A DNA stretch of 64,000 bases from an uncultured Candidatus Saccharibacteria bacterium (GTDB lineage: Bacteria > Patescibacteriota > Minisyncoccia > Phycocordibacterales > CAYSCM01), in contig CAYSCM010000001.1 in NCBI GenBank assembly GCA_964429815.1, positions 160,001-224,000 on the forward strand, in the 5' to 3' direction. Within the stretch, counting starts at the first letter, position 1. Each line of letters starts with the position of its first letter. Made by a program: the position numbers and the translations under genes. Below are positions 3,335 through 19,259 of the stretch, one piece after another. The notes under the pieces were generated by a model. It saw nothing but the letters and a program-made list of their open reading frames with translations, did no database searches and had not been told where the DNA came from.

Positions 3335-5216
3335 GTTTTTTATATAAAAGCCTTGATATACCGAGTAAAATATGTGCGCTGGAATCAACCCACGCATCGG
3401 GGTTATTGTTATCGTGACGAAATCCTCCAACAAGCTTGTCTTGTCGTTCTTTAGGAACAAAAAAAAGATTGGTTTCGTCGTACTGCATTTTAGAAAGCCA
3501 ATCTAGCGCTCTAGCAAGGACTACTTTGTTGTTTTTCGAGTCAACAGCCAAAACCTCAAAAATTTTTCCTGTACCTCGGGTAAAAGAAAAAACAGAATTT
3601 TTTGTTCGAGGAAATGACCCGTCACTATTTTGTGAATTTTTCATCCAGAAAGTCACACGGTCCACAACCTCCATATTGTGGGGGAAGAAAAGATTTACAA
3701 GTTCAGCGTATAAAGCAAACTCAATACCTTCTCGTTTCTCTATATCTTGGTCAAATTTTTCAACCAAACGTCTCTCAAGAACCGGGGCTCCGCTTTGCTC
3801 CCACTGTGCAACAGGCATAATGAGTCGAGCCAGACCAAGCGCATGTGACAGCGTTATCACATCGTCACGCCAATAAAGTGGCAATAGGGACGCTAAAAAT
3901 TTTTCTGCAAGCTTTCTTTCACCGAGAGCCCAGGCTGCTTTGCCCAGATAAGCTCTAGTTAGATCAGCGCCGGCAATTTCTCTGGGGCGCCGATCCAATT
4001 GCTTTTCTATAGCCGCCATGCCACGATGTGCCGCCTTAACATAGTCCCGTCCAATCGATATTTTGGAAAATTCCGCAAGCGCCCACACAGCATATGCCTG
4101 CCTGGGCCAATCAGCAGTAGGAGAAGTGTCCTTTCGAGCCGAGACAATGACACGGAAATTTCCATCTGCGTCTTGATTAAAAGAAAGCCAGGTGGCAATT
4201 TTTTGTGCGACAGCAATTTCATTCTCCGCATTTTCTTGTACAATAGGCCCCTTTAGCGAATATATAGTTCCTATTCTTTGCGGAAATTCTATAAGATCTT
4301 CCACTTCGAAACTTACTGTCTCGGCTTTATCGATTGAACCCTGTATCGAAGCTTTTTCCCTGGCAAGGTTTAATAACAATTCGGGCATTCCGGAAAAATG
4401 TCGAATATTGAATATTTCCGGCAAAAACCAACCGCGATGGCTGCCGAGAGCCAAAAGATACCCCTTATCAGTGTATATGTCGCTGTTCTGTTTTTCTTTT
4501 TGTGTGAGCGGAATACGTAAATGACCCATAAGCGTAATTTCGATTACGACAGTTTCAAGCTCACTAGGGCCTATAGGTTTAAAACGTGGATCTCGAGCAG
4601 CCATCATAGCCGCCGTGGCAACTGCTTGTCCGATTTCCTTATTTTCTATGATGATGGAGCCGCGAAATTGTCCCTCAATCCAGAATGCTACATCAACATC
4701 ATTACGTAAGTGTAGACGCGTAGATCTTTGTGGAAGAATAAATTTTTCATCTCCATTATTGACATAATGTGTAAGTGCATGCCGGGCAATCCTGAATAAC
4801 TCCTTCTTTTCTTCATTTAATAAACCCCACCGTAATGGCTGCGGTGAAACGTTTCGCTTTTTCGACTCACGTATCTGGATAGTTGGCGAGGAATATAGGA
4901 TGGCCCACATTTCATCTACTTCCACGGATATCGGTGAATATTCGATAATAAATGTTATAGAGTCTTTGGAAGGAGGTGGGGGGATTTCGATAGGATGGTC
5001 ACCATACGTGAGCGGAAATGAAAAAGAAAAATATCTAACCTTCCCCTTCCCTCTTAAACAAAGGATGTCCTCTTTATTCGCCAATGTGCTAATAAAAAGA
5101 AAAGTTTCTTCAATTTGACGAGAAAAATGTTTGTTAAAAAATCTCTTATGGGGGGTGAAAAAAAAACCCTTTCGCATGATGAAGGCATCATAACACTCAG
5201 AAAATATCTGTAACAA
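3327..5216 (-). CDS. AMMECR1-domain protein fused to a C-terminal alpha/alpha-toroid (prenyltransferase/terpene-cyclase-like or LanC-like) repeat domain
   Basis: AMMECR1 signature LNEEKKELFRIARHAL ... RGSIII ... AVATAAMMAARDPRF ... YLLALGSHRGWFLPEI. C-terminal Q-x-DG-x-F type repeats (NQDADGNFRV, NSQNSDGSFPR, VGGFRHDNNNPDAWVDSSAHILLGI). The true start may be an internal Met near 4910. Confidence 0.55.
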   Translation of the reverse strand: MLQIFSECYDAFIMRKGFFFTPHKRFFNKHFSRQIEETFLFISTLANKEDILCLRGKGKVRYFSFSFPLTYGDHPIEIPPPPSKDSITFIIEYSPISVEVDEMWAILYSSPTIQIRESKKRNVSPQPLRWGLLNEEKKELFRIARHALTHYVNNGDEKFILPQRSTRLHLRNDVDVAFWIEGQFRGSIIIENKEIGQAVATAAMMAARDPRFKPIGPSELETVVIEITLMGHLRIPLTQKEKQNSDIYTDKGYLLALGSHRGWFLPEIFNIRHFSGMPELLLNLAREKASIQGSIDKAETVSFEVEDLIEFPQRIGTIYSLKGPIVQENAENEIAVAQKIATWLSFNQDADGNFRVIVSARKDTSPTADWPRQAYAVWALAEFSKISIGRDYVKAAHRGMAAIEKQLDRRPREIAGADLTRAYLGKAAWALGERKLAEKFLASLLPLYWRDDVITLSHALGLARLIMPVAQWEQSGAPVLERRLVEKFDQDIEKREGIEFALYAELVNLFFPHNMEVVDRVTFWMKNSQNSDGSFPRTKNSVFSFTRGTGKIFEVLAVDSKNNKVVLARALDWLSKMQYDETNLFFVPKERQDKLVGGFRHDNNNPDAWVDSSAHILLGISRLLYKKHA

Positions 5217-5549: not shown

Positions 5550-6152
5550 ATGCTCCGCAAAGCCGTCCCTATGGCGACGGCCGCTGGGCTCGTCGCACTT
5601 CTATCAGCCGCTGAACCCCTAGAGACCACCTACAAAACGCTGACCTACCGGACGTACCGCGTGGATCTTTCCGGTCGTGCAATGGCTCTTACCGAAGAGC
5701 GCTACGAGTTTGTGAGCCGCGACCTAAACGGAAGAACTCGACTGCGTCTCACGGTCCGAAAGCTCCCCGACGGAGAGATCCTCGAGAAAGACATCCCTGT
5801 AGTCACGACCCGCTTCGGCAACCTAGAGCGTCGCGGGGAGCTTCGGTGGAGCCCCTACCGCCCTCGCATCATCGAGCGTGAGTACGACACCCGCATCGAC
5901 TACACGACTCGAATGGGAGCGCAAAAGATGGCTACCGGTCGATCATTCATGCTTTCGTATGGACTGCGCGAAGCCACCTACGCCGGGAAAATCTACAAGG
6001 CCTTCAAGGTGCGCTCCGACATTTTCGAAAATAACGGATCAATGACGCGATACAAGTGCGTGTACGTGTTTGAACTTCGAACTATCGCTTTTTGTCGAGA
6101 ACAGGGCACCGAAGCTGACATTGAAACCCGACTCGAAAAGGTTGAGAACTAA
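5550..6152 (+). CDS. Secreted hypothetical protein
   Basis: The 5' part of listed ORF 5307..6152 overlaps the tRNA and is spurious. The internal start MLRKAVPMATAAGLVALLSAAEP is a signal peptide. A hairpin-rich terminator region follows at about 6154-6226. Confidence 0.5.
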   Translation: MLRKAVPMATAAGLVALLSAAEPLETTYKTLTYRTYRVDLSGRAMALTEERYEFVSRDLNGRTRLRLTVRKLPDGEILEKDIPVVTTRFGNLERRGELRWSPYRPRIIEREYDTRIDYTTRMGAQKMATGRSFMLSYGLREATYAGKIYKAFKVRSDIFENNGSMTRYKCVYVFELRTIAFCREQGTEADIETRLEKVEN

Positions 6153-9507: not shown

Positions 9508-9987
9508 CTACACTCCCTGCACGTAAGCAAGAGCGATGCCCGCAGCGACGGAGACGTTGAGCGATTCTTTAGAACCTCGCATAGGGATTTCAGCGAGGAC
9601 GTCGGCACCCTCGAGAAGGTTCTGACTGATTCCCTCGGTCTCGCTGCCGAGTATGAGGAGAATATGTTTGCCCTTTGGCAGAGCCGACACGGAGATCGAG
9701 CCGCTCCCCTGCTCGAGCGCGGCTATGAAAAAACCTTTCGCACGGTACGTGTCGATGACGGGGAGCCCCGCCTCGGTGTGCTCCCACTTCACCGTTTGTT
9801 CGGCGCCGAGGGAAACTTTGGCGAAATCCGCTCGAGCTCTTCCGAAGCGGTCGAGCGGAGTTGGTGTAGTGCCAACGCAGTAGATTCTTAAAACAGCAAA
9901 AGCATCTGCGGTGCGGAAAATTGAGCCGACGTTGTGGACACTTCGGATATTGTCGAGTATCAGCACGGTCTTTCGCCGTTGACTCAT
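9508..9987 (-). CDS. SpoU/TrmH-family RNA 2'-O-methyltransferase
   Basis: Internal start MSQRRKTVLILDNIRSVHNVGSIFRTADAF (SpoU motif 1) ... LILGSETEGIS ... SLNVSVAAGIALA (motifs 2 and 3). The listed 230-aa ORF has a spurious N-terminal extension. Confidence 0.75.
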   Translation of the reverse strand: MSQRRKTVLILDNIRSVHNVGSIFRTADAFAVLRIYCVGTTPTPLDRFGRARADFAKVSLGAEQTVKWEHTEAGLPVIDTYRAKGFFIAALEQGSGSISVSALPKGKHILLILGSETEGISQNLLEGADVLAEIPMRGSKESLNVSVAAGIALAYVQGV

Positions 9988-10035
9988 GGGGGTTGGGCTA
10001 ATAGTATCGAAAAAAGAGATCCTGAGGAGTTGGTA

Positions 10036-10218
10036 ATGGCGAAGGGTGGGCGACGTAGCGACTGGCGCAATGGAAAACGAAAAGACCACGAGGAGTGTGA
10101 GAGGTTCAATCTCAAGCGTAAATCCTTTGAGCGTGGCTGCATCCGGTGCGGGCAAGGTCCCGTGGACCATACCCGCCGATGTGTACGATGTAAAACCCAA
10201 GAATCGAGGCCCGAATAG
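10036..10218 (+). CDS. Small basic zinc-ribbon protein (CxxC-x10-CxxC), hypothetical
   Basis: GAGGAG Shine-Dalgarno 5 nt before the ATG at 10036. MAKGGRRSDWRNGKRKDHEECERFNLKRKSFERGCIRCGQGPVDHTRRCVRCKTQESRPE. Followed by hairpin GAGGCCCGAATAGGGCCTC plus T-tract at 10206-10235. Confidence 0.4.
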   Translation: MAKGGRRSDWRNGKRKDHEECERFNLKRKSFERGCIRCGQGPVDHTRRCVRCKTQESRPE

Positions 10219-10249
10219 GGCCTCTTACTTTTTAGGGTATACTTTTCCC

Positions 10250-10651
10250 ATGCTCAACCCATTCCCCTACGTTCTCTCCTTCGGTGCATTCGCACCGCTG
10301 CTTATTCGACTTTCTGTTTCTCTCTTTCTCATGCTTGCCGCACGCCACCTCTGGCAAAATCGGCAGCGCGCAGTCGCGGAACTTCTCCCCAAACTAGGCT
10401 CGCTCGCGTGGCCAAAATTCTATGGCCTCCTCGGTATAGAAGTGGCTGCAGCGCTCTCACTTTTTCTCGGATTCTATACGCAAATCGGTGCCATAGCCGG
10501 TATGGTTGTCTTTCTGGGACTCCCCTACGCATTGAAGCGTTTCCCCTCGCTCTCTCCCTGGACCTACGCGCTTCCGCTTCTTCTTGCGCTCCTCTCTCTG
10601 ACTCTTCTCATAACTGGGGCGGGTATCTACGCCTTCGACTATCCGTTTTAA
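10250..10651 (+). CDS. DoxX-family small membrane protein
   Basis: Internal start MLNPFPYVLSFGAFAPLLIRLSVSLFLM... Four hydrophobic helices, DoxX-like size and pattern. Confidence 0.55.
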   Translation: MLNPFPYVLSFGAFAPLLIRLSVSLFLMLAARHLWQNRQRAVAELLPKLGSLAWPKFYGLLGIEVAAALSLFLGFYTQIGAIAGMVVFLGLPYALKRFPSLSPWTYALPLLLALLSLTLLITGAGIYAFDYPF

Positions 10652-10655
10652 CAAG

Positions 10656-10729
10656 TCCGCCCGGCAGGACTCGAACCTGCGACCTTCTCCTTAAAAGGGA
10701 GCGGCTCTACCAAACTGAGCTACGGGCGG
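10656..10729 (-). tRNA. tRNA-Lys (anticodon TTT)
   Basis: Minus-strand read: CCGCCCG-TA-GCTC-AGTTTGGTA-GAGC-C-GCTCC-CTTTTAA-GGAGA-AGGTC-GCAGG-TTCGAGT-CCTGC-CGGGCGG-A. Anticodon loop CU-UUU-AA. Confidence 0.8.
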
Positions 10730-10767
10730 ATGTGCGCTCACATTATAGCGAAAGGATGAATTGCTCA

Positions 10768-10800
10768 AGCGGAAAGGAAGAAACCCCACTTGCGTGGGGC
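10768..10800 (-). terminator. Rho-independent terminator of membrane-protein paralog 1
   Basis: Hairpin CCCCACTTGCGTGGGG followed, on the minus strand, by a T-rich tract. Confidence 0.5.
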
Positions 10801-10807
10801 TTCAAGG

Positions 10808-11449
10808 TTAACCTTCGTTCTCGAATCTCTCTTTAACGAAAGTAAGGAACTGTGAACTTACGACCGTCATGGCGGTCATGAGGCCGTATAAGATTACGAA
10901 GGTTATCACGGTCCAGAATGTTGACAGGGTCCTGCTGAAGATGGTCATCCAAGCGAAATAGAATACCATAACTGCGATGAGCCAGCTGCCAACATCCAAG
11001 TTGCGAAGTGTTATGGGACGAAGCCATTCGCATCGTTCGAAATACTTCGGCTTGCACTGCGCCCGAACATAAAAACGGGTAATGATCGCAGCGATGCCGA
11101 GGGCACTCATGAGAACAAACCACCAGTGTGATAATTCTCCCATTTTCAGTATCGCAGCGTACTCCAAGAAACCTAGCATGTAGGGAAATGCAACATCGGG
11201 GAAACGTGGTGTCGTTCTCATAATGAGTATCCACCAAGAGTATTCCGTTACTACCAGAAGTATTGCACACAATACTGCAAAAGCTTGAAGATAGAGCAAC
11301 ACGGACTCTTTTGTTTCTGCCATCCTCAAGATCAATCCACCAAGAGCGATGCTTTGGATTACTCCAAGCGAGGTGAGGTATGAAGAGGCAAAAAGTTCTT
11401 CAGAACGTCTCCGGAACTCGGCAGCATTTAGGGGCATGACAGCCTCCAT
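10808..11449 (-). CDS. Polytopic membrane protein, unknown family (paralog copy 1)
   Basis: 213 aa with about 6 hydrophobic helices (MPLNAAEFRRRSEELF...). A near-identical paralog lies 1 kb downstream. Confidence 0.6.
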   Translation of the reverse strand: MEAVMPLNAAEFRRRSEELFASSYLTSLGVIQSIALGGLILRMAETKESVLLYLQAFAVLCAILLVVTEYSWWILIMRTTPRFPDVAFPYMLGFLEYAAILKMGELSHWWFVLMSALGIAAIITRFYVRAQCKPKYFERCEWLRPITLRNLDVGSWLIAVMVFYFAWMTIFSRTLSTFWTVITFVILYGLMTAMTVVSSQFLTFVKERFENEG

Positions 11450-11553
11450 AGTCGGTTAGAACTTTTCGAAGCGACCTTACCGCAGAATCTTGCAAAAATC
11501 AATAAATATGTTATCATACTTTCTGGCAAGCTAGATTTTTGAAGGAGACGCAG

Positions 11554-11670
11554 ATGCAAGAAAGCCCTCAAAAGGAACAGGGGTTTTGGGATCGGTGGGG
11601 TACTCTGGTCTTCATCGGTCTACTCTTTGGGACCATGGCTGTAGTCGCGGCAAGCAAGCACTTCGCTTAG
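11554..11670 (+). CDS. Small single-TM peptide (38 aa) with GFW-x2-W motif, divergent from the membrane-protein gene
   Basis: RBS GAAGGAGA upstream. MQESPQKEQGFWDRWGTLVFIGLLFGTMAVVAASKHFA. Below the 60-aa cutoff of the ORF track. Conserved promoter-like TTGCAAAAATCAATAAATATGTTATCAT upstream. Own terminator. Confidence 0.45.
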   Translation: MQESPQKEQGFWDRWGTLVFIGLLFGTMAVVAASKHFA

Positions 11671-11683
11671 CGTCCCACGAACG

Positions 11684-11720
11684 GGCCCCGATGGTTTTTC
11701 ATTGGGGCCTTTTCTTTTTC
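11684..11720 (+). terminator. Rho-independent terminator after small peptide 1
   Basis: GGCCCCGATGGTTTTTCATTGGGGCC hairpin plus TTTTCTTTTT. Confidence 0.6.
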
Positions 11721-11751
11721 CTTAAATAGAAAGAATGAAACGCTCAAGCGC

Positions 11752-11780
11752 GAAAAAATAAGCCCCGCATACGCGGGGCT
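11752..11780 (-). terminator. Rho-independent terminator of paralog copy 2
   Basis: AGCCCCGCATACGCGGGGCT hairpin with a flanking T-tract on the minus strand. Confidence 0.5.
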
Positions 11781-11785
11781 CGGGT

Positions 11786-12416
11786 TCAGCTTTGGCGTTC
11801 AAATTCTTCCTTAAGCGACCTGAGGAAGTTTGAACTTATGATGGCCATCGAAACCATGAGGCCGTACAGGATGATGAAAGTTGTCACGGTCCAAAACGCT
11901 GACAGTGTTTTGCCAAAGATGGCCATCCATAGAAAATAGAAGGCCATCACAGCTACGAGACCACTGCCAATGTCAAGGTTGCGTAGCGTCAGTGGCCGGA
12001 CCCGGTCGCATTCTTCGAAATATTTTGGTTCGCATTGCCCTCGTACGTAGAAGCGCGTGATGATCGCTATGACGGCTGAGGCGGTCATACTGATATACCA
12101 CAGGGGTTCCTTGCCTATCAGCCAGCGCAATCGACACATACTCAAGGATTCCTAGCAGGTACGGAAAGACCGCGTCGAGAAAACTTGGTGTTTTCCTCAT
12201 AATTATTAGCCACCAAGTATATTCAGTTACCACCAGAAGTATTGCAAGTATTGCGGTCATGCCTTCTAACATGAGAACTGTTGAGGTTGGCGATTCAGCT
12301 ATTTTTAGTACGAGTCCACCAAGGGCGACACTTTGAATTACGCCGATCGAACTGAGATAAGACCCTGCAAACATTTCCTCGGAACGTCTTCTGAATTCCG
12401 CTGCGTTTAAAGGCAT
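11786..12416 (-). pseudogene. Frameshifted second copy of the polytopic membrane protein
   Basis: Two overlapping ORFs (11973..12416 and 11786..12145) together align end-to-end with copy 1. The frame switches near 12125-12135 (...EYVSIAL | GKEPLWYISMTASAVIAIITRFYVRGQC...). No homopolymer at the junction. Confidence 0.55.
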
Positions 12417-12523
12417 CGATACCTCCTTAGATCAGATTCGGGGCAAGTTTACAGGAAATATTGTAAAAATCAATAAATGTGATATAACTGGCTTGAAAGT
12501 TCTACTTCTTATTGGAGGTATCC

Positions 12524-12631
12524 ATGGCCCGTGAATCCAAAGGTTTCTGGCAAACCTGGGAAGCTCCTATTGGGGCTGCACTTATGCTCCTGGTACCCGC
12601 CATAGTGTTGGTTCTACTCATCAAATGGTGA
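12524..12631 (+). CDS. Small single-TM peptide (35 aa), paralog of 11554..11670
   Basis: RBS TTGGAGGT. MARESKGFWQTWEAPIGAALMLLVPAIVLVLLIKW. Same GFW-x2-W motif and the same upstream AAAAATCAATAAAT element. Confidence 0.45.
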   Translation: MARESKGFWQTWEAPIGAALMLLVPAIVLVLLIKW

Positions 12632-12651
12632 GGAAAACGAAACCAACTCGA

Positions 12652-12689
12652 AGAGGCCCGTCGCTTCAGCTGGGCCTTTTCTTTTTTAT
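12652..12689 (+). terminator. Rho-independent terminator after small peptide 2
   Basis: AGGCCCGTCGCTTCAGCTGGGCCT hairpin plus TTTTCTTTTTTATT. Confidence 0.6.
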
Positions 12690-13396
12690 TAAATCGATAA
12701 AATAAATTGCTCAAGCGCGACGGGGAGTTCGTGTTCTCCGCGACGAGCGTCGTGGTAGAGGCGGACAAGCTCGTGGGAGAGTGTCAAAAGCTCTTCTCGC
12801 GTGTAATTTTTCGCAAAACTATGTGCTTTTGAAAATACAAACGGCGAAAGCCCGCTCTCTTTGGCATTTTTCGAGGCGCTCGCGAGGAGCATCCCTTTCA
12901 CGATCCAAAAGAGCATTCCGTGAAGCTGCTCCTCCTCGGCGCCGGTTGCCCGCGCCTTTTGATACAAGACCCAGGCATTTTTCCGATCACGGCGACCGAG
13001 GGCGTCAGTGAACGCAAACACGTCAAACGATTCCTTCTTTCCCTTCGGCAACTCAACGATTTCTACTTTTTCTGCATGCCTTTCGATCTTTTTTTTAAGT
13101 TCGGCCTTGGGTTTGCTCTGAAGCACGATAAAAATATTTTCCGACTGCGCAAAATCAGCGATCTTCTCAGCAACAGACCCATCGGCCTCCTCTAAAAGTT
13201 CATCGAGGACAATCACAATTTTGTCGTGAAAGAGGTCCTGCGCACCCGCGTATTCTTCAAGCCTTCCGCTCTCAAGATCCTCGGGGGTTATGCGCACGAT
13301 GGATGGCTCATCGTAGCGACGACTCAGCCCTTCGGTGAGGGTATCGAGTTTTTCGAGCGCTTTCGCACGGTCATTGCCAATAATTGCGTAGAACAT
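12689..13396 (-). CDS. holA: DNA polymerase III delta subunit-like (short HolA)
   Basis: 235 aa. Delta-like N-terminus MFYAIIGNDRAKALEKLD and C-terminus LHGMLFWIVKGMLLA / ELVRLYHDARRGEHELPVALEQFIL. Much shorter than E. coli HolA. Confidence 0.4.
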   Translation of the reverse strand: MFYAIIGNDRAKALEKLDTLTEGLSRRYDEPSIVRITPEDLESGRLEEYAGAQDLFHDKIVIVLDELLEEADGSVAEKIADFAQSENIFIVLQSKPKAELKKKIERHAEKVEIVELPKGKKESFDVFAFTDALGRRDRKNAWVLYQKARATGAEEEQLHGMLFWIVKGMLLASASKNAKESGLSPFVFSKAHSFAKNYTREELLTLSHELVRLYHDARRGEHELPVALEQFILSI

Positions 13397-17479: not shown

Positions 17480-17588
17480 GTGAGCCTCCACTCTGCAAAG
17501 AAAAATCTGAGTCAACTAATAGCACATCTTGGCAATTTTGTCAATAATCCCCTTGGTGCGACCCTCGAAGCGCGCTACGATTAGGAGA

Positions 17589-19259
17589 ATGGCTGTTTTC
17601 AATGAGGATAAGGAGCTCCGGAAGCTCTCCGAGCTCCGGAGCAAAGAGGAAGAGGACCTCGCGCAGCTTCTCTCCCAGAAGTACGGCACGCTCTACGCGG
17701 ACCTCACGCGCATGTCCATCAATACCGATGCCCTGCGTCTCATCAAGGAGACGGATGCGCGGGGCGGAAACATCGCCGCTTTTGCGATGGTGGGCAAGAA
17801 GCTCTCGGTCGCGGTAAAAAGCCCCCAGACGCTAAAGGTCGCGGAAATCCTCGAGGAGCTTAAAAAGCGGGGTTTCCTGGTAGACCTCTACATGGTCTCG
17901 ATGCGAAGCCTCGAGCGCGCGTTTGAGCATTACAAAGACCTCTCCTTCGCCACCGAGACCAAGGCGGGGGTGCTCGACATCTCTGGGGAGGAAATCCATC
18001 GGCTCCTCGCGGCCATCAAGAGCCTTGCCGACGCCAAGGGCCAGATCGAAGAACTCCTAAAACAGAAGAAGCTCTACCGCATCAGCCGCATCCTCGAAAC
18101 GGTGCTTGCCGGCGGCCTCTCGACCGACGCCTCCGACGTCCACATCGAGCCGCAGGAGGCTGACGTACGTCTGCGGTTCCGCCTCGATGGCGTCCTCACC
18201 GACGTTCTCACCTTCGATCGCGAGACATATCAGCTCCTCCTCTCGCGCATAAAGCTCCTCTCCGGACTCAAATTGAACATCAAAGACGCCGCTCAGGACG
18301 GGCGCTTTTCAGTAAAGATAGAAGGGAGCGATATCGAAGTGCGCACTTCGATACTTCCGGGCGCGTACGGCGAGTCGATAGTGCTGCGCATCTTAAACCC
18401 CAACACGATAGGCGTCCCCATGGAGGAGCTCGGCATTCCAAAAAATCTCCACGTAATTTTGGAGCGAGAAATACGAAAGCCGAACGGCATGATACTCAAC
18501 ACCGGCCCCACGGGCTCGGGCAAAACGACGACGCTCTACGCGTTCATGAAAAAGATCCACACGCCCGACATCAAGATAGTCACCATCGAGGACCCCATCG
18601 AATACCACCTTAAAGGTGTCGTGCAGACGCAGGTCGAGCCCAAGTCTTACACGTTCGCGCAGGGGTTGCGCAGCGCGCTGCGCCAAGACCCGGACGTCAT
18701 TATGATCGGCGAAATTCGCGACGAGGAGGTCGCGGGGGTCGCCATCAACTCCTCCCTCACCGGACATCTGGTGTTCTCAACGCTCCACACCAACGACGCC
18801 GCCGGCGCATTCCCCCGCCTCATCGACCTCGACGTAAACCCGAAAATTATCGGCTCGGCGGTCAACATCGTGATGGCGCAGCGCCTCGTGCGGCGGCTCT
18901 GTGAGCAGTGTCGAAGAGAAGTGAAGCTCACGGGAGAAGACAAAAAACTCATCGAGGAAACCCTCAAAGGCATTGTCGACTCTTCGCTCGTGCCGAAAGA
19001 AAAACCGACCGCCTGGGAGGCGGTTGGCTGCGAGGCCTGTAACGGGAGCGGCTACCGAGGGCGCATCGGCATTTTCGAGGCGATCATCATGGATAAAGGC
19101 ATCGAAGATAGAGTGGCTGCCTCGGCAAGCGAGCGTGAACTAGCCGCGGAAGCGCGTCGACAGAAGATTCTTTCGATGAAAGAGGACGGCGTGCTTAAAG
19201 TTCTCTCGGGCGTAACGACGCTTCCCGAGCTTGAGCGAGTCATCGAAATCCGCGATTAG
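17589..19259 (+). CDS. pilB: GspE/PilB-family secretion ATPase (type IV pilus/T2SS assembly ATPase)
   Basis: Walker A GPTGSGKTTTLYA. Asp and His boxes. Tetracysteine CEQCRRE...CEACNGSGYRGRIGIFE. N-terminal GSPII_E_N-like region. Confidence 0.85.
   Translation: MAVFNEDKELRKLSELRSKEEEDLAQLLSQKYGTLYADLTRMSINTDALRLIKETDARGGNIAAFAMVGKKLSVAVKSPQTLKVAEILEELKKRGFLVDLYMVSMRSLERAFEHYKDLSFATETKAGVLDISGEEIHRLLAAIKSLADAKGQIEELLKQKKLYRISRILETVLAGGLSTDASDVHIEPQEADVRLRFRLDGVLTDVLTFDRETYQLLLSRIKLLSGLKLNIKDAAQDGRFSVKIEGSDIEVRTSILPGAYGESIVLRILNPNTIGVPMEELGIPKNLHVILEREIRKPNGMILNTGPTGSGKTTTLYAFMKKIHTPDIKIVTIEDPIEYHLKGVVQTQVEPKSYTFAQGLRSALRQDPDVIMIGEIRDEEVAGVAINSSLTGHLVFSTLHTNDAAGAFPRLIDLDVNPKIIGSAVNIVMAQRLVRRLCEQCRREVKLTGEDKKLIEETLKGIVDSSLVPKEKPTAWEAVGCEACNGSGYRGRIGIFEAIIMDKGIEDRVAASASERELAAEARRQKILSMKEDGVLKVLSGVTTLPELERVIEIRD

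Follow-up and report, generated by a model that had tools for sequence, protein, structure and literature searches.

What put two diverged copies of one small gene pair head to tail between a DNA polymerase gene and a tRNA gene, and what does the pair encode? The question is raised by a stretch of 64,000 nucleotides (nt; hereafter, the window) of contig CAYSCM010000001.1 from an uncultured Candidatus Saccharibacteria bacterium, in which the interval between a holA-like gene (DNA polymerase III delta) and a tRNA-Lys gene is filled by two similar units, each with a membrane-protein gene and a divergent gene for a small peptide. Our best explanation, to which we assign as a whole a probability of roughly 0.6, is that an accessory cassette of ~0.97 kb is present here as an array of two copies that diverged long ago, and that such cassettes arrived, or keep being exchanged, by recombination within the 3' end of the neighboring gene.

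Results

Layout of the array

The two units, 10743-11721 and 11722-12690, contain the same parts in the same order, namely a 30-nt boundary repeat (R), a terminator and a membrane-protein gene on the minus strand, an AT-rich box, and a plus-strand small open reading frame (ORF) with a strong Shine-Dalgarno (SD) site and a terminator of its own. The direct-repeat families of the region are in register (spacings of 979, 967 and 971 nt), and the end-to-end alignment of the units is collinear and head-to-tail, in agreement with a preliminary description of the region as two modules of ~970 bp with two genes each; the extended nucleotide similarity expected from that description is apparent when the region is compared with itself. 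Conservation is uneven along the units, with the highest identity in R (77-80%), followed by the membrane-protein coding sequence (CDS; 69%), the intergenic region (66%) and the peptide CDS (55%, the level of shuffled sequence). All four intrinsic terminators fold (z from -2.7 to -4.9), and three were found by the consensus scan. Those of the membrane genes, on the minus strand, lie at 10780..10803 (-18.5 kcal/mol, z -4.9) and 11760..11781 (z -4.3), and those of the peptide genes, on the plus strand, at 11683..11710 (-24.3 kcal/mol, z -4.3) and 12650..12681 (-19.1 kcal/mol, z -2.7; missed by the scan). The terminators that had been proposed for these genes, and the ribosome-binding sites proposed for the peptide genes, are thus present in both units.

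Gene ends repeated at the cassette boundaries

The preliminary description had placed the unit boundaries at a repeated motif, the nature of which it missed: the motif is the 3' coding end of holA, and similar gene-end repeats flank the cassette in other genomes. The holA-like gene (12689..13396, minus strand; Pfam DNA_pol3_delta_C, 6e-8) ends in R3 (12689-12718), the true end of the gene, with the last 10 codons ALEQFILSI*. Two remnants of these codons follow on the same strand, R2 (11722..11751, ALERFILSI*) at the junction of the two units and R1 (10743..10772, PLEQFILSL*; 77% identical to R3) at the far end of the array, 13 nt from the tRNA-Lys(UUU) gene (10655..10729, minus strand; ARAGORN, with an Rfam tRNA score of 66 bits). 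Only R3, which is attached to holA, is in use. The motif occurs at 10754, 11733 and 12700, against 0.35 occurrences expected in the window, so the three places stand; the proposed pattern (A/T)TGCTCAAGCG does not, because the middle copy reads ACGCTCAAGCG.

Three other loci show the same arrangement with other genes. At L009, the working end of a YkuD-like gene (DIGTKVVVRD*) is accompanied by a remnant (NIGTKVVVRD*); the nine sense codons in common differ by eight bases, each a synonymous change; the stop codon has changed from TGA to TAA, and the boundary codon is D or N. At L006, the last ~40 codons of an unnamed neighboring gene are repeated beyond the cassette, and at L018 the last 17 codons of a convergent cysS recur on the far side, with five synonymous differences and one non-synonymous. 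Pooled over the four loci (window, L009, L006 and L018), the proportion of synonymous differences (pS) is 0.50 and that of non-synonymous differences (pN) is 0.10, a ratio of 0.19, which departs both from neutrality (p=1.5e-7) and from a neutral remnant paired with a constrained working copy (p=6e-4). Because the differences are mostly synonymous and both of these models are rejected, the spare copies behaved, for the larger part of their divergence, like functional gene ends.

The two cassette ends of L006 also carry hairpins (4735-4766 and 5648-5679) that are 94% identical, one terminating the upstream gene and the peptide gene and the other the membrane gene; the gene-end remnant comes after the second hairpin and is itself followed by a third, different one (5808-5833).

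An old pair of membrane genes and a young frameshift

The membrane genes lie on the minus strand where they had been placed (10808..11449 and 11786..12416), and their six helices are borne out by the structural model. The first copy is intact, as reported, although the 213 amino acids (aa) given for it correspond to the longest ORF, to 11449. Translation is likely to start at the ATG at 11437 and to yield 209 aa (10808..11437), because GGAGG lies 5 nt upstream of this codon, copy 2 and all homologues begin with MPLN or MPLD, and the ATG further upstream belongs to the ribosome-binding site.

The second copy is split over two overlapping frames, 11973..12416 and 11786..12145, that together align with copy 1. 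Deleting nt 12122 restores an ORF of 630 nt and 209 codons, which aligns without gaps to copy 1 over equal length. The extra base is one of the two C at 12122-12123 (CTG[G]CTG on the minus strand), close to the switch at 12125-12135 described before; as also described, there is no homopolymer, and the break falls in the helix 3-4 loop of the structural model.

The duplication had been called recent, which the divergence of the copies contradicts: copy 1 and the corrected copy 2 are 61% identical in protein and 66% in DNA, and their synonymous sites are saturated (pS 0.70; synonymous divergence, dS, of about 2). The ratio of non-synonymous to synonymous divergence (dN/dS) is 0.14 for the whole gene, with 0.13 upstream of the shift and 0.15 downstream. 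Purifying selection acted on both halves of copy 2 during almost the entire divergence of the pair. The saturated synonymous sites, the low dN/dS in both halves and the downstream frame, which is still free of stop codons, as is the upstream half, indicate that the pair is old and the frameshift young. The membrane gene of unit 2 is best read as a young pseudogene, in line with the pseudogenization already suspected, next to an intact peptide gene and promoter.

A fast-evolving divergent peptide gene behind putative crossed promoters

The peptide genes encode predicted single-pass proteins of 38 aa in unit 1 (11554..11670, plus strand; MQESPQKEQGFWDRWGTLVFIGLLFGTMAVVAASKHFA; AAGGAG SD site; hydropathy of 2.31 over residues 17-33) and 35 aa in unit 2 (12524..12631, plus strand; MARESKGFWQTWEAPIGAALMLLVPAIVLVLLIKW; GGAGG SD site; hydropathy of 2.92). 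They had been described as more diverged than the membrane proteins, and the difference is large: 8/35 residues are identical compared to 61% for the membrane proteins, and the DNA is at the shuffled level compared to 69%. A search for the pair elsewhere found it conserved. In 5/5 related loci with enough upstream flank (L006, L007, L008/L014, L009/L016 and L018, which with the two window units make seven cassettes), an ORF of 31-42 aa with a good SD site starts on the opposite strand about 100-120 nt from the membrane gene start. A strong transmembrane (TM) helix follows a short polar, often Trp-containing N-terminus in 7/8 peptides scored (the L018 peptide was left out), and similarity between loci is slight (e.g. 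QKEQGFWDRW, SKGFWQTW, QKEPGWVYTSF, MMKWWR).

The spacer between the divergent genes had been described as promoter-like and shared by the units, and its 21-nt box TTGYAAAAATCAATAAATRTG indeed occurs exactly twice in the 64 kb, once per unit, against 0.01 occurrences expected. In unit 1 (11474..11517, both strands), the scan calls a peptide promoter with -35 TTGCAA at 11490-95, a spacer of 16 nt and a TGn-extended -10 TATCAT at 11512-17. Reading the opposite strand, we propose a membrane-gene promoter whose -35, TTGATT (11502-11497), would lie within the spacer of the peptide promoter, with a weak -10, TAAGGT (11479-11474). The peptide promoter of unit 2 (12461..12488, plus strand), also read from the sequence, lies inside the conserved box and has -35 TTGTAA, 16 nt and a TGn-extended -10 TATAAC. 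A near-consensus crossed layout recurs in L018 (TTGAAA-17-TATAAT versus TTGCAA-16-TATACT). The box is thus best read as two crossed promoters, each with its -35 in the spacer of the other, an overlap through which expression of one gene might shut out that of the other. The two predicted start sites, separated by ~57 bp, face outward in opposite directions, and no transcript overlap is expected; Rfam identified no small RNA in the region, only the tRNA-Lys. An operator motif shared across loci was considered and rejected, the common parts looking like ordinary extended -10 and -35 elements.

Several loci carry more than one peptide gene. Tandem pairs occur at L007:4633-4900, where the two peptides share the ending GKPL[FI] and each gene has an SD site, and at L009:4626-4885, where the second copy retains the motif K-x-E-R-P-G-L-V-Y with no canonical start upstream of it. 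The promoter box is present in two copies at L008 (1180-1204 and 2235-2259; 96% identical). At L014:1499-1621, a second, full-length gene for a peptide of 40 aa (MMKWWRKLKPGTRD...) lies downstream of the membrane gene, without a second membrane gene; the first peptide of L008/L014 (31 aa) looks truncated.

A family with the fold of TMEM175

Scans of both membrane copies and both peptides against Pfam and NCBIfam returned no match. An exhaustive hidden Markov model (HMM) search detected 272 proteins at E<=1e-3, comprising seven full-length relatives (208-238 aa, 33-38% identity) and many more distant ones of 260-570 aa that carry the six-helix domain at the C-terminus; out of 1.84 billion representatives, only ~10 sequences reach about 1e-23 or lower across most of the length. 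A word-index search of 5.8 billion proteins returned only two self matches and missed both P0003, the C-terminal fragment of copy 2, and all relatives at 35-38%. Calling the protein an orphan from such a fast search alone would be wrong; the relatives require the exhaustive one.

The AlphaFold2 model built from a 98-sequence alignment has six helices, a predicted local distance difference test (pLDDT) score of 96.5 and a predicted template modeling (pTM) score of 0.90; a 3-row alignment gave a pLDDT of 47, and we use the former model. Foldseek ranks 5vre_A first, with probability 0.97, and the single six-helix repeat is superposable on solved structures of TMEM175/DUF1211. In sequence, there is no sign of this family: the window protein has no Pfam match at E<=1, 0/98 relatives match the TMEM175 profile at E<=0.01, and a profile search of Protein Data Bank sequences returned no TMEM175, only spurious matches to G-protein-coupled receptors. 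The helix-1 motif of the family, R-x4-F-[PAT]-x-[SG]-Y-L-T...IIQG, contains no conserved Asp and differs from the signature RxxxFSD, which in MtTMEM175 stands at the start of helix 1 (Arg24, Phe28-Ser29-Asp30; PMC7176437). We therefore regard the protein as a member of an unnamed family, TMEM175-like in its modeled fold and plausibly a cation pore.

Among the distant members, the six-helix domain is fused behind an Mrr-type nuclease (Mrr_cat) domain in P0013 and P0018 and behind a Trypco2 (Pepco) domain in P0054 and P0091. Both domain types are known from anti-phage conflict systems, and a recent study showed Trypco2 to be a pore effector that is activated by a protease (bioRxiv 10.1101/2025.11.14.688446). 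For the stand-alone subfamily, these fusions are only a hint; the PADLOC defense models do not match the window membrane protein, their matches being limited to the N-terminal fusion domains in a few distant relatives.

Accessory behavior and decay across genomes

The neighbors of the cassette are housekeeping genes that differ in each genome: holA and tRNA-Lys in the window and, at other loci, ykuD and bipA; an unnamed gene downstream of pheST and a GT2 glycosyltransferase gene; CYTH and DHFR genes; an unnamed gene and cysS; and an RNase T-family gene and rplT. A metagenome scan with a subfamily profile produced one locus, a duplicate of L008, and no relatives were found on viral contigs or in phage or plasmid records.

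Three of about 10 close members, including window copy 2, are broken or truncated. The gene at L018:2843-3603 (P0012) carries a frameshift behind residue 34: codons 1-34 (MPLNTAEFRKRSEDLFPGAYLTSLGIIQNVTLG) read in a different frame from the rest, and one base is apparently missing at CTGGGCTC; the divergent gene for a 38-aa peptide is nevertheless intact. The copy at L015:4001-4483 (P0010) is truncated at the 5' end, lacks helix 1 and part of helix 2, has neither a peptide gene nor flanking repeats, and shows an 8-nt overlap with the end of the RNase T-family gene; it has the appearance of a decayed remnant. It is the sole membrane copy found without a peptide gene. Peptide genes exceed membrane genes at L007 and L009, by their tandem pairs, and at L008/L014, where the extra peptide gene and promoter box have no membrane gene.

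Other features of the window

A PilB/T2SSE-type ATPase is encoded at 17529-19259 on the plus strand (E 2e-114), 5 kb from the array; machinery for type IV pili and DNA uptake would be relevant if the cassettes spread by transformation. On the other side, the plus-strand ORF at 10046-10651 (201 aa at its longest) matches DoxX only weakly, at an E value of 8e-4 that does not pass the cut-off of Pfam, and overlaps a SpoU methylase ORF on the opposite strand (9508-10200). Its true start is probably further downstream, because public gene calls give 133 aa.

Discussion

The analysis translates into a model of how the array was built. Because the gene-end repeats differ mostly by synonymous changes, and because three other genomes show the same with other genes, we infer that recombination took place within the 3' end of the neighboring gene. 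Under this model, a cassette would come on the DNA of a diverged relative already bearing that relative's version of the neighbor's last codons, and it would integrate by a single crossover of a circle that bears this gene end, in the geometry of e14 and icd; a second such event would stack a second cassette. Some time after the divergence of the pair, the membrane gene of copy 2 gained one base in the helix 3-4 loop. As for function, the membrane protein would, judging from its fold, form an oligomeric cation-conducting pore like TMEM175, and the peptide would be a membrane-embedded partner of this pore, most likely a restraining or antidote-like subunit. The latter role is suggested because peptide genes are retained or increase in number at loci with a decaying membrane gene, and the converse was never seen.

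Several observations weigh against parts of this explanation. The repeats are short (10 codons per copy in the window), and the signal of selection depends on pooling four loci. Coding-end repeats are missing from L007, which has only a 12-mer, and from L008, where non-coding repeats of ~100 nt (812-915 and 2291-2390) bracket the whole array. Neither the cassette itself nor any of the 15 ORFs scanned from 3.3 to 19.3 kb of the window was found to encode a recombinase. Neither a circular form nor an empty site was seen; an exact-protein look-up of holA gave the same arrangement only, and a search of genome contigs for holA gave one locus of 30% identity, without synteny. The proposed membrane-gene promoter is weak by consensus and was not called by the promoter scan. 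Finally, the link to TMEM175 is one of fold, at 13% identity and with another helix-1 motif, and cation conductance is extrapolated from that fold.

The array could also be the product of a plain, ancient tandem duplication in place of the holA end together with the cassette, the spare holA ends being kept similar by gene conversion with no horizontal step. Such a history agrees with the absence of a recombinase from the ORFs scanned, with the recurrence of partial tandem duplications in the family (the peptide gene and promoter of L008/L014, the peptide pairs of L007 and L009), and with the mutual relationship of units 1 and 2, which are closest to each other (61%, compared to 35-38% to all others). 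However, duplication of a segment aXb yields two copies of each part, yet there are three copies of R, and the single cassettes of L009, L006 and L018 are likewise flanked by R on both sides. For these reasons simple duplication in place is disfavored, and two separate acquisitions, or recombination at the repeats, appear more likely; moreover, a synonymous bias between the R copies is expected if both were gene ends but not under conversion and neutral drift. We thus consider a purely local origin unlikely, although it deserves to be taken seriously. Far less can be said for the sequencing error that had been offered as an alternative to pseudogenization and that would leave the genome with two intact paralogues. 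A downstream frame that is open throughout and conserved to the same degree as the upstream frame would be expected of an artefact, too, but contigs from three separately assembled runs (SRR12313479, SRR12313480 and SRR12313482; loci L001-L003) are 100% identical over 3.6-7 kb, frameshift included, at a site without a homopolymer. The products on record, present in two National Center for Biotechnology Information (NCBI) assemblies, are the two fragments only, and a search with the C-terminal half found no intact copy-2 protein among 5.8 billion proteins. Given the agreement of the runs and the absence of an intact variant from these records, the frameshift is real at the level of the assemblies, and an artefact is very unlikely. 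Hardly more credible is a copy 2 that still works, be it by programmed +1 frameshifting or by assembly of two three-helix halves made separately. The break does fall exactly in the helix 3-4 loop, and the ATG at 12139 opens a C-terminal half that one annotation calls as a gene of 117 aa (P0003). Nevertheless, there is no good SD site ahead of this ATG, the N-terminal frame runs on for 49 junk codons, and the L018 member is broken at another place, which suggests decay rather than design; programmed frameshifting was rejected, there being no slippery site and no stop or known stall codon at the switch.

With a decaying copy 2 as the preferred reading, the division of labor between the two genes can be considered. 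In the logic of addiction and immunity modules, the losable part is the dangerous one and the persisting part is protective, which favors, with low confidence, a pore protein restrained by the peptide over a toxic peptide with a membrane immunity protein. In the latter scheme, the peptide would be the harmful agent, similar to a type I toxin or a bacteriocin, and the six-helix protein its antidote. The peptides are indeed small, single-pass and fast-evolving, like known membrane toxins, and multi-pass immunity proteins are common beside small peptides in bacteriocin loci. However, the peptide genes are unharmed at loci with a damaged or absent membrane gene (window unit 2, L008/L014, L018), the opposite of what a toxin deprived of its immunity protein would show; the peptides lack a leader or GG motif, and none of the 15 ORFs scanned encodes an exporter; and the predicted transcripts, which do not overlap, leave no evident antisense control. 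This scheme seems to us rather improbable. Still less probable is that the pair is simply a housekeeping ion channel and its small auxiliary subunit, with incidental flanking repeats. The fold matches a family of K+ channels thought to control membrane potential in bacteria, and small single-pass partners of transporters are known, KdpF being an example. Such a role fits poorly with a very patchy distribution (the ~10 high-scoring sequences, and nothing outside this genome in the word-index search), with a neighborhood that is different in every genome, with the damage seen in close members, and with the fusion of some distant members to conflict-system domains (Mrr_cat, Trypco2/Pepco).

A restrained pore carried on a recombining cassette invites a broader proposal, which we put forward as a speculation of doubtful standing. 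The cassettes might be undescribed mini-cassettes of ~1 kb without an integrase, each a pore of TMEM175 fold and an antidote-like peptide under crossed promoters, that would spread among small-genome uncultivated bacteria via the 3' ends of housekeeping genes, together with the relative's gene end, and act as a selfish or defensive membrane-depolarizing module. Apart from this proposal, the geometry of the gene-end repeats and the signature of selection at four unrelated sites point to transfer of small cargo between related genomes without an element-encoded recombinase, which bears on accessory gene gain and loss in the reduced genomes of uncultivated bacteria. If the family assignment is correct, it adds an unnamed, structurally confident branch to the TMEM175 fold, with the partner peptide as an experimental handle.

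Comparison with known systems

The prokaryotic K+ channels of the TMEM175/DUF1211 family (CmTMEM175, 5VRE; MtTMEM175, 6HD8) share with the window protein a length of about 190-230 aa with a single repeat of six TM helices, Arg and Phe conserved where helix 1 begins, and Trp conserved at the cytoplasmic end of helix 2. The differences are the lack of a match at the sequence level, F-[PAT]-x-[SG]-Y in place of FSD, an invariant set of the family's own (Y66, W68, W69, R74, D81, P85, Y86, E92 and W106), and the divergent gene for a single-pass peptide, which has not been described for TMEM175. The peptides, in turn, resemble those of type I toxin-antitoxin systems, KdpF and KCNE-type subunits in size (30-42 aa), in the polar N-terminus and single hydrophobic helix, in having a promoter and terminator of their own, and in the tight linkage to a partner gene. 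They show no sequence similarity to known small-peptide families in Pfam or NCBIfam. Small and hydrophobic as in type I toxins, they are encoded next to a six-helix protein rather than an antisense RNA, and the predicted starts imply no overlapping antisense transcript.

Integron gene cassettes are likewise mobile-looking units of ~1 kb, arranged head to tail with a short repeat at each junction. In the loci considered here, however, we found no attC-type imperfect palindrome common to them and no IntI integrase among the nearby ORFs scanned; the junction repeat is host coding sequence that differs by locus, and the cassettes bring their own promoters.

A further parallel is with integrative elements at gene 3' ends, such as e14 or phage 21 in icd; e14 provides icd with a substitute 3' end (PMC6379469). 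The insert described here is far smaller, at only ~1 kb, and has no integrase, and neither a site-specific recombinase, in the element or among the nearby ORFs scanned, nor one conserved att site was found. The repeated gene end varies by genome (holA, ykuD-like, cysS or an unnamed gene) and is 30 to about 125 nt long. What the systems have in common is the architecture. In the window, L009, L006 and L018, as in the icd elements, direct repeats of the target's 3' coding end bracket the insert and leave the target ORF intact, and the displaced copy differs mainly by silent changes. The accretion of integrative and conjugative elements (ICEs) and cis-mobilizable elements (CIMEs) at fda is a comparable case of integration at a 3' end. 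Tandem accretion of such elements yields the order repeat-element-repeat-element-repeat, which is the order of the array between holA and tRNA-Lys.

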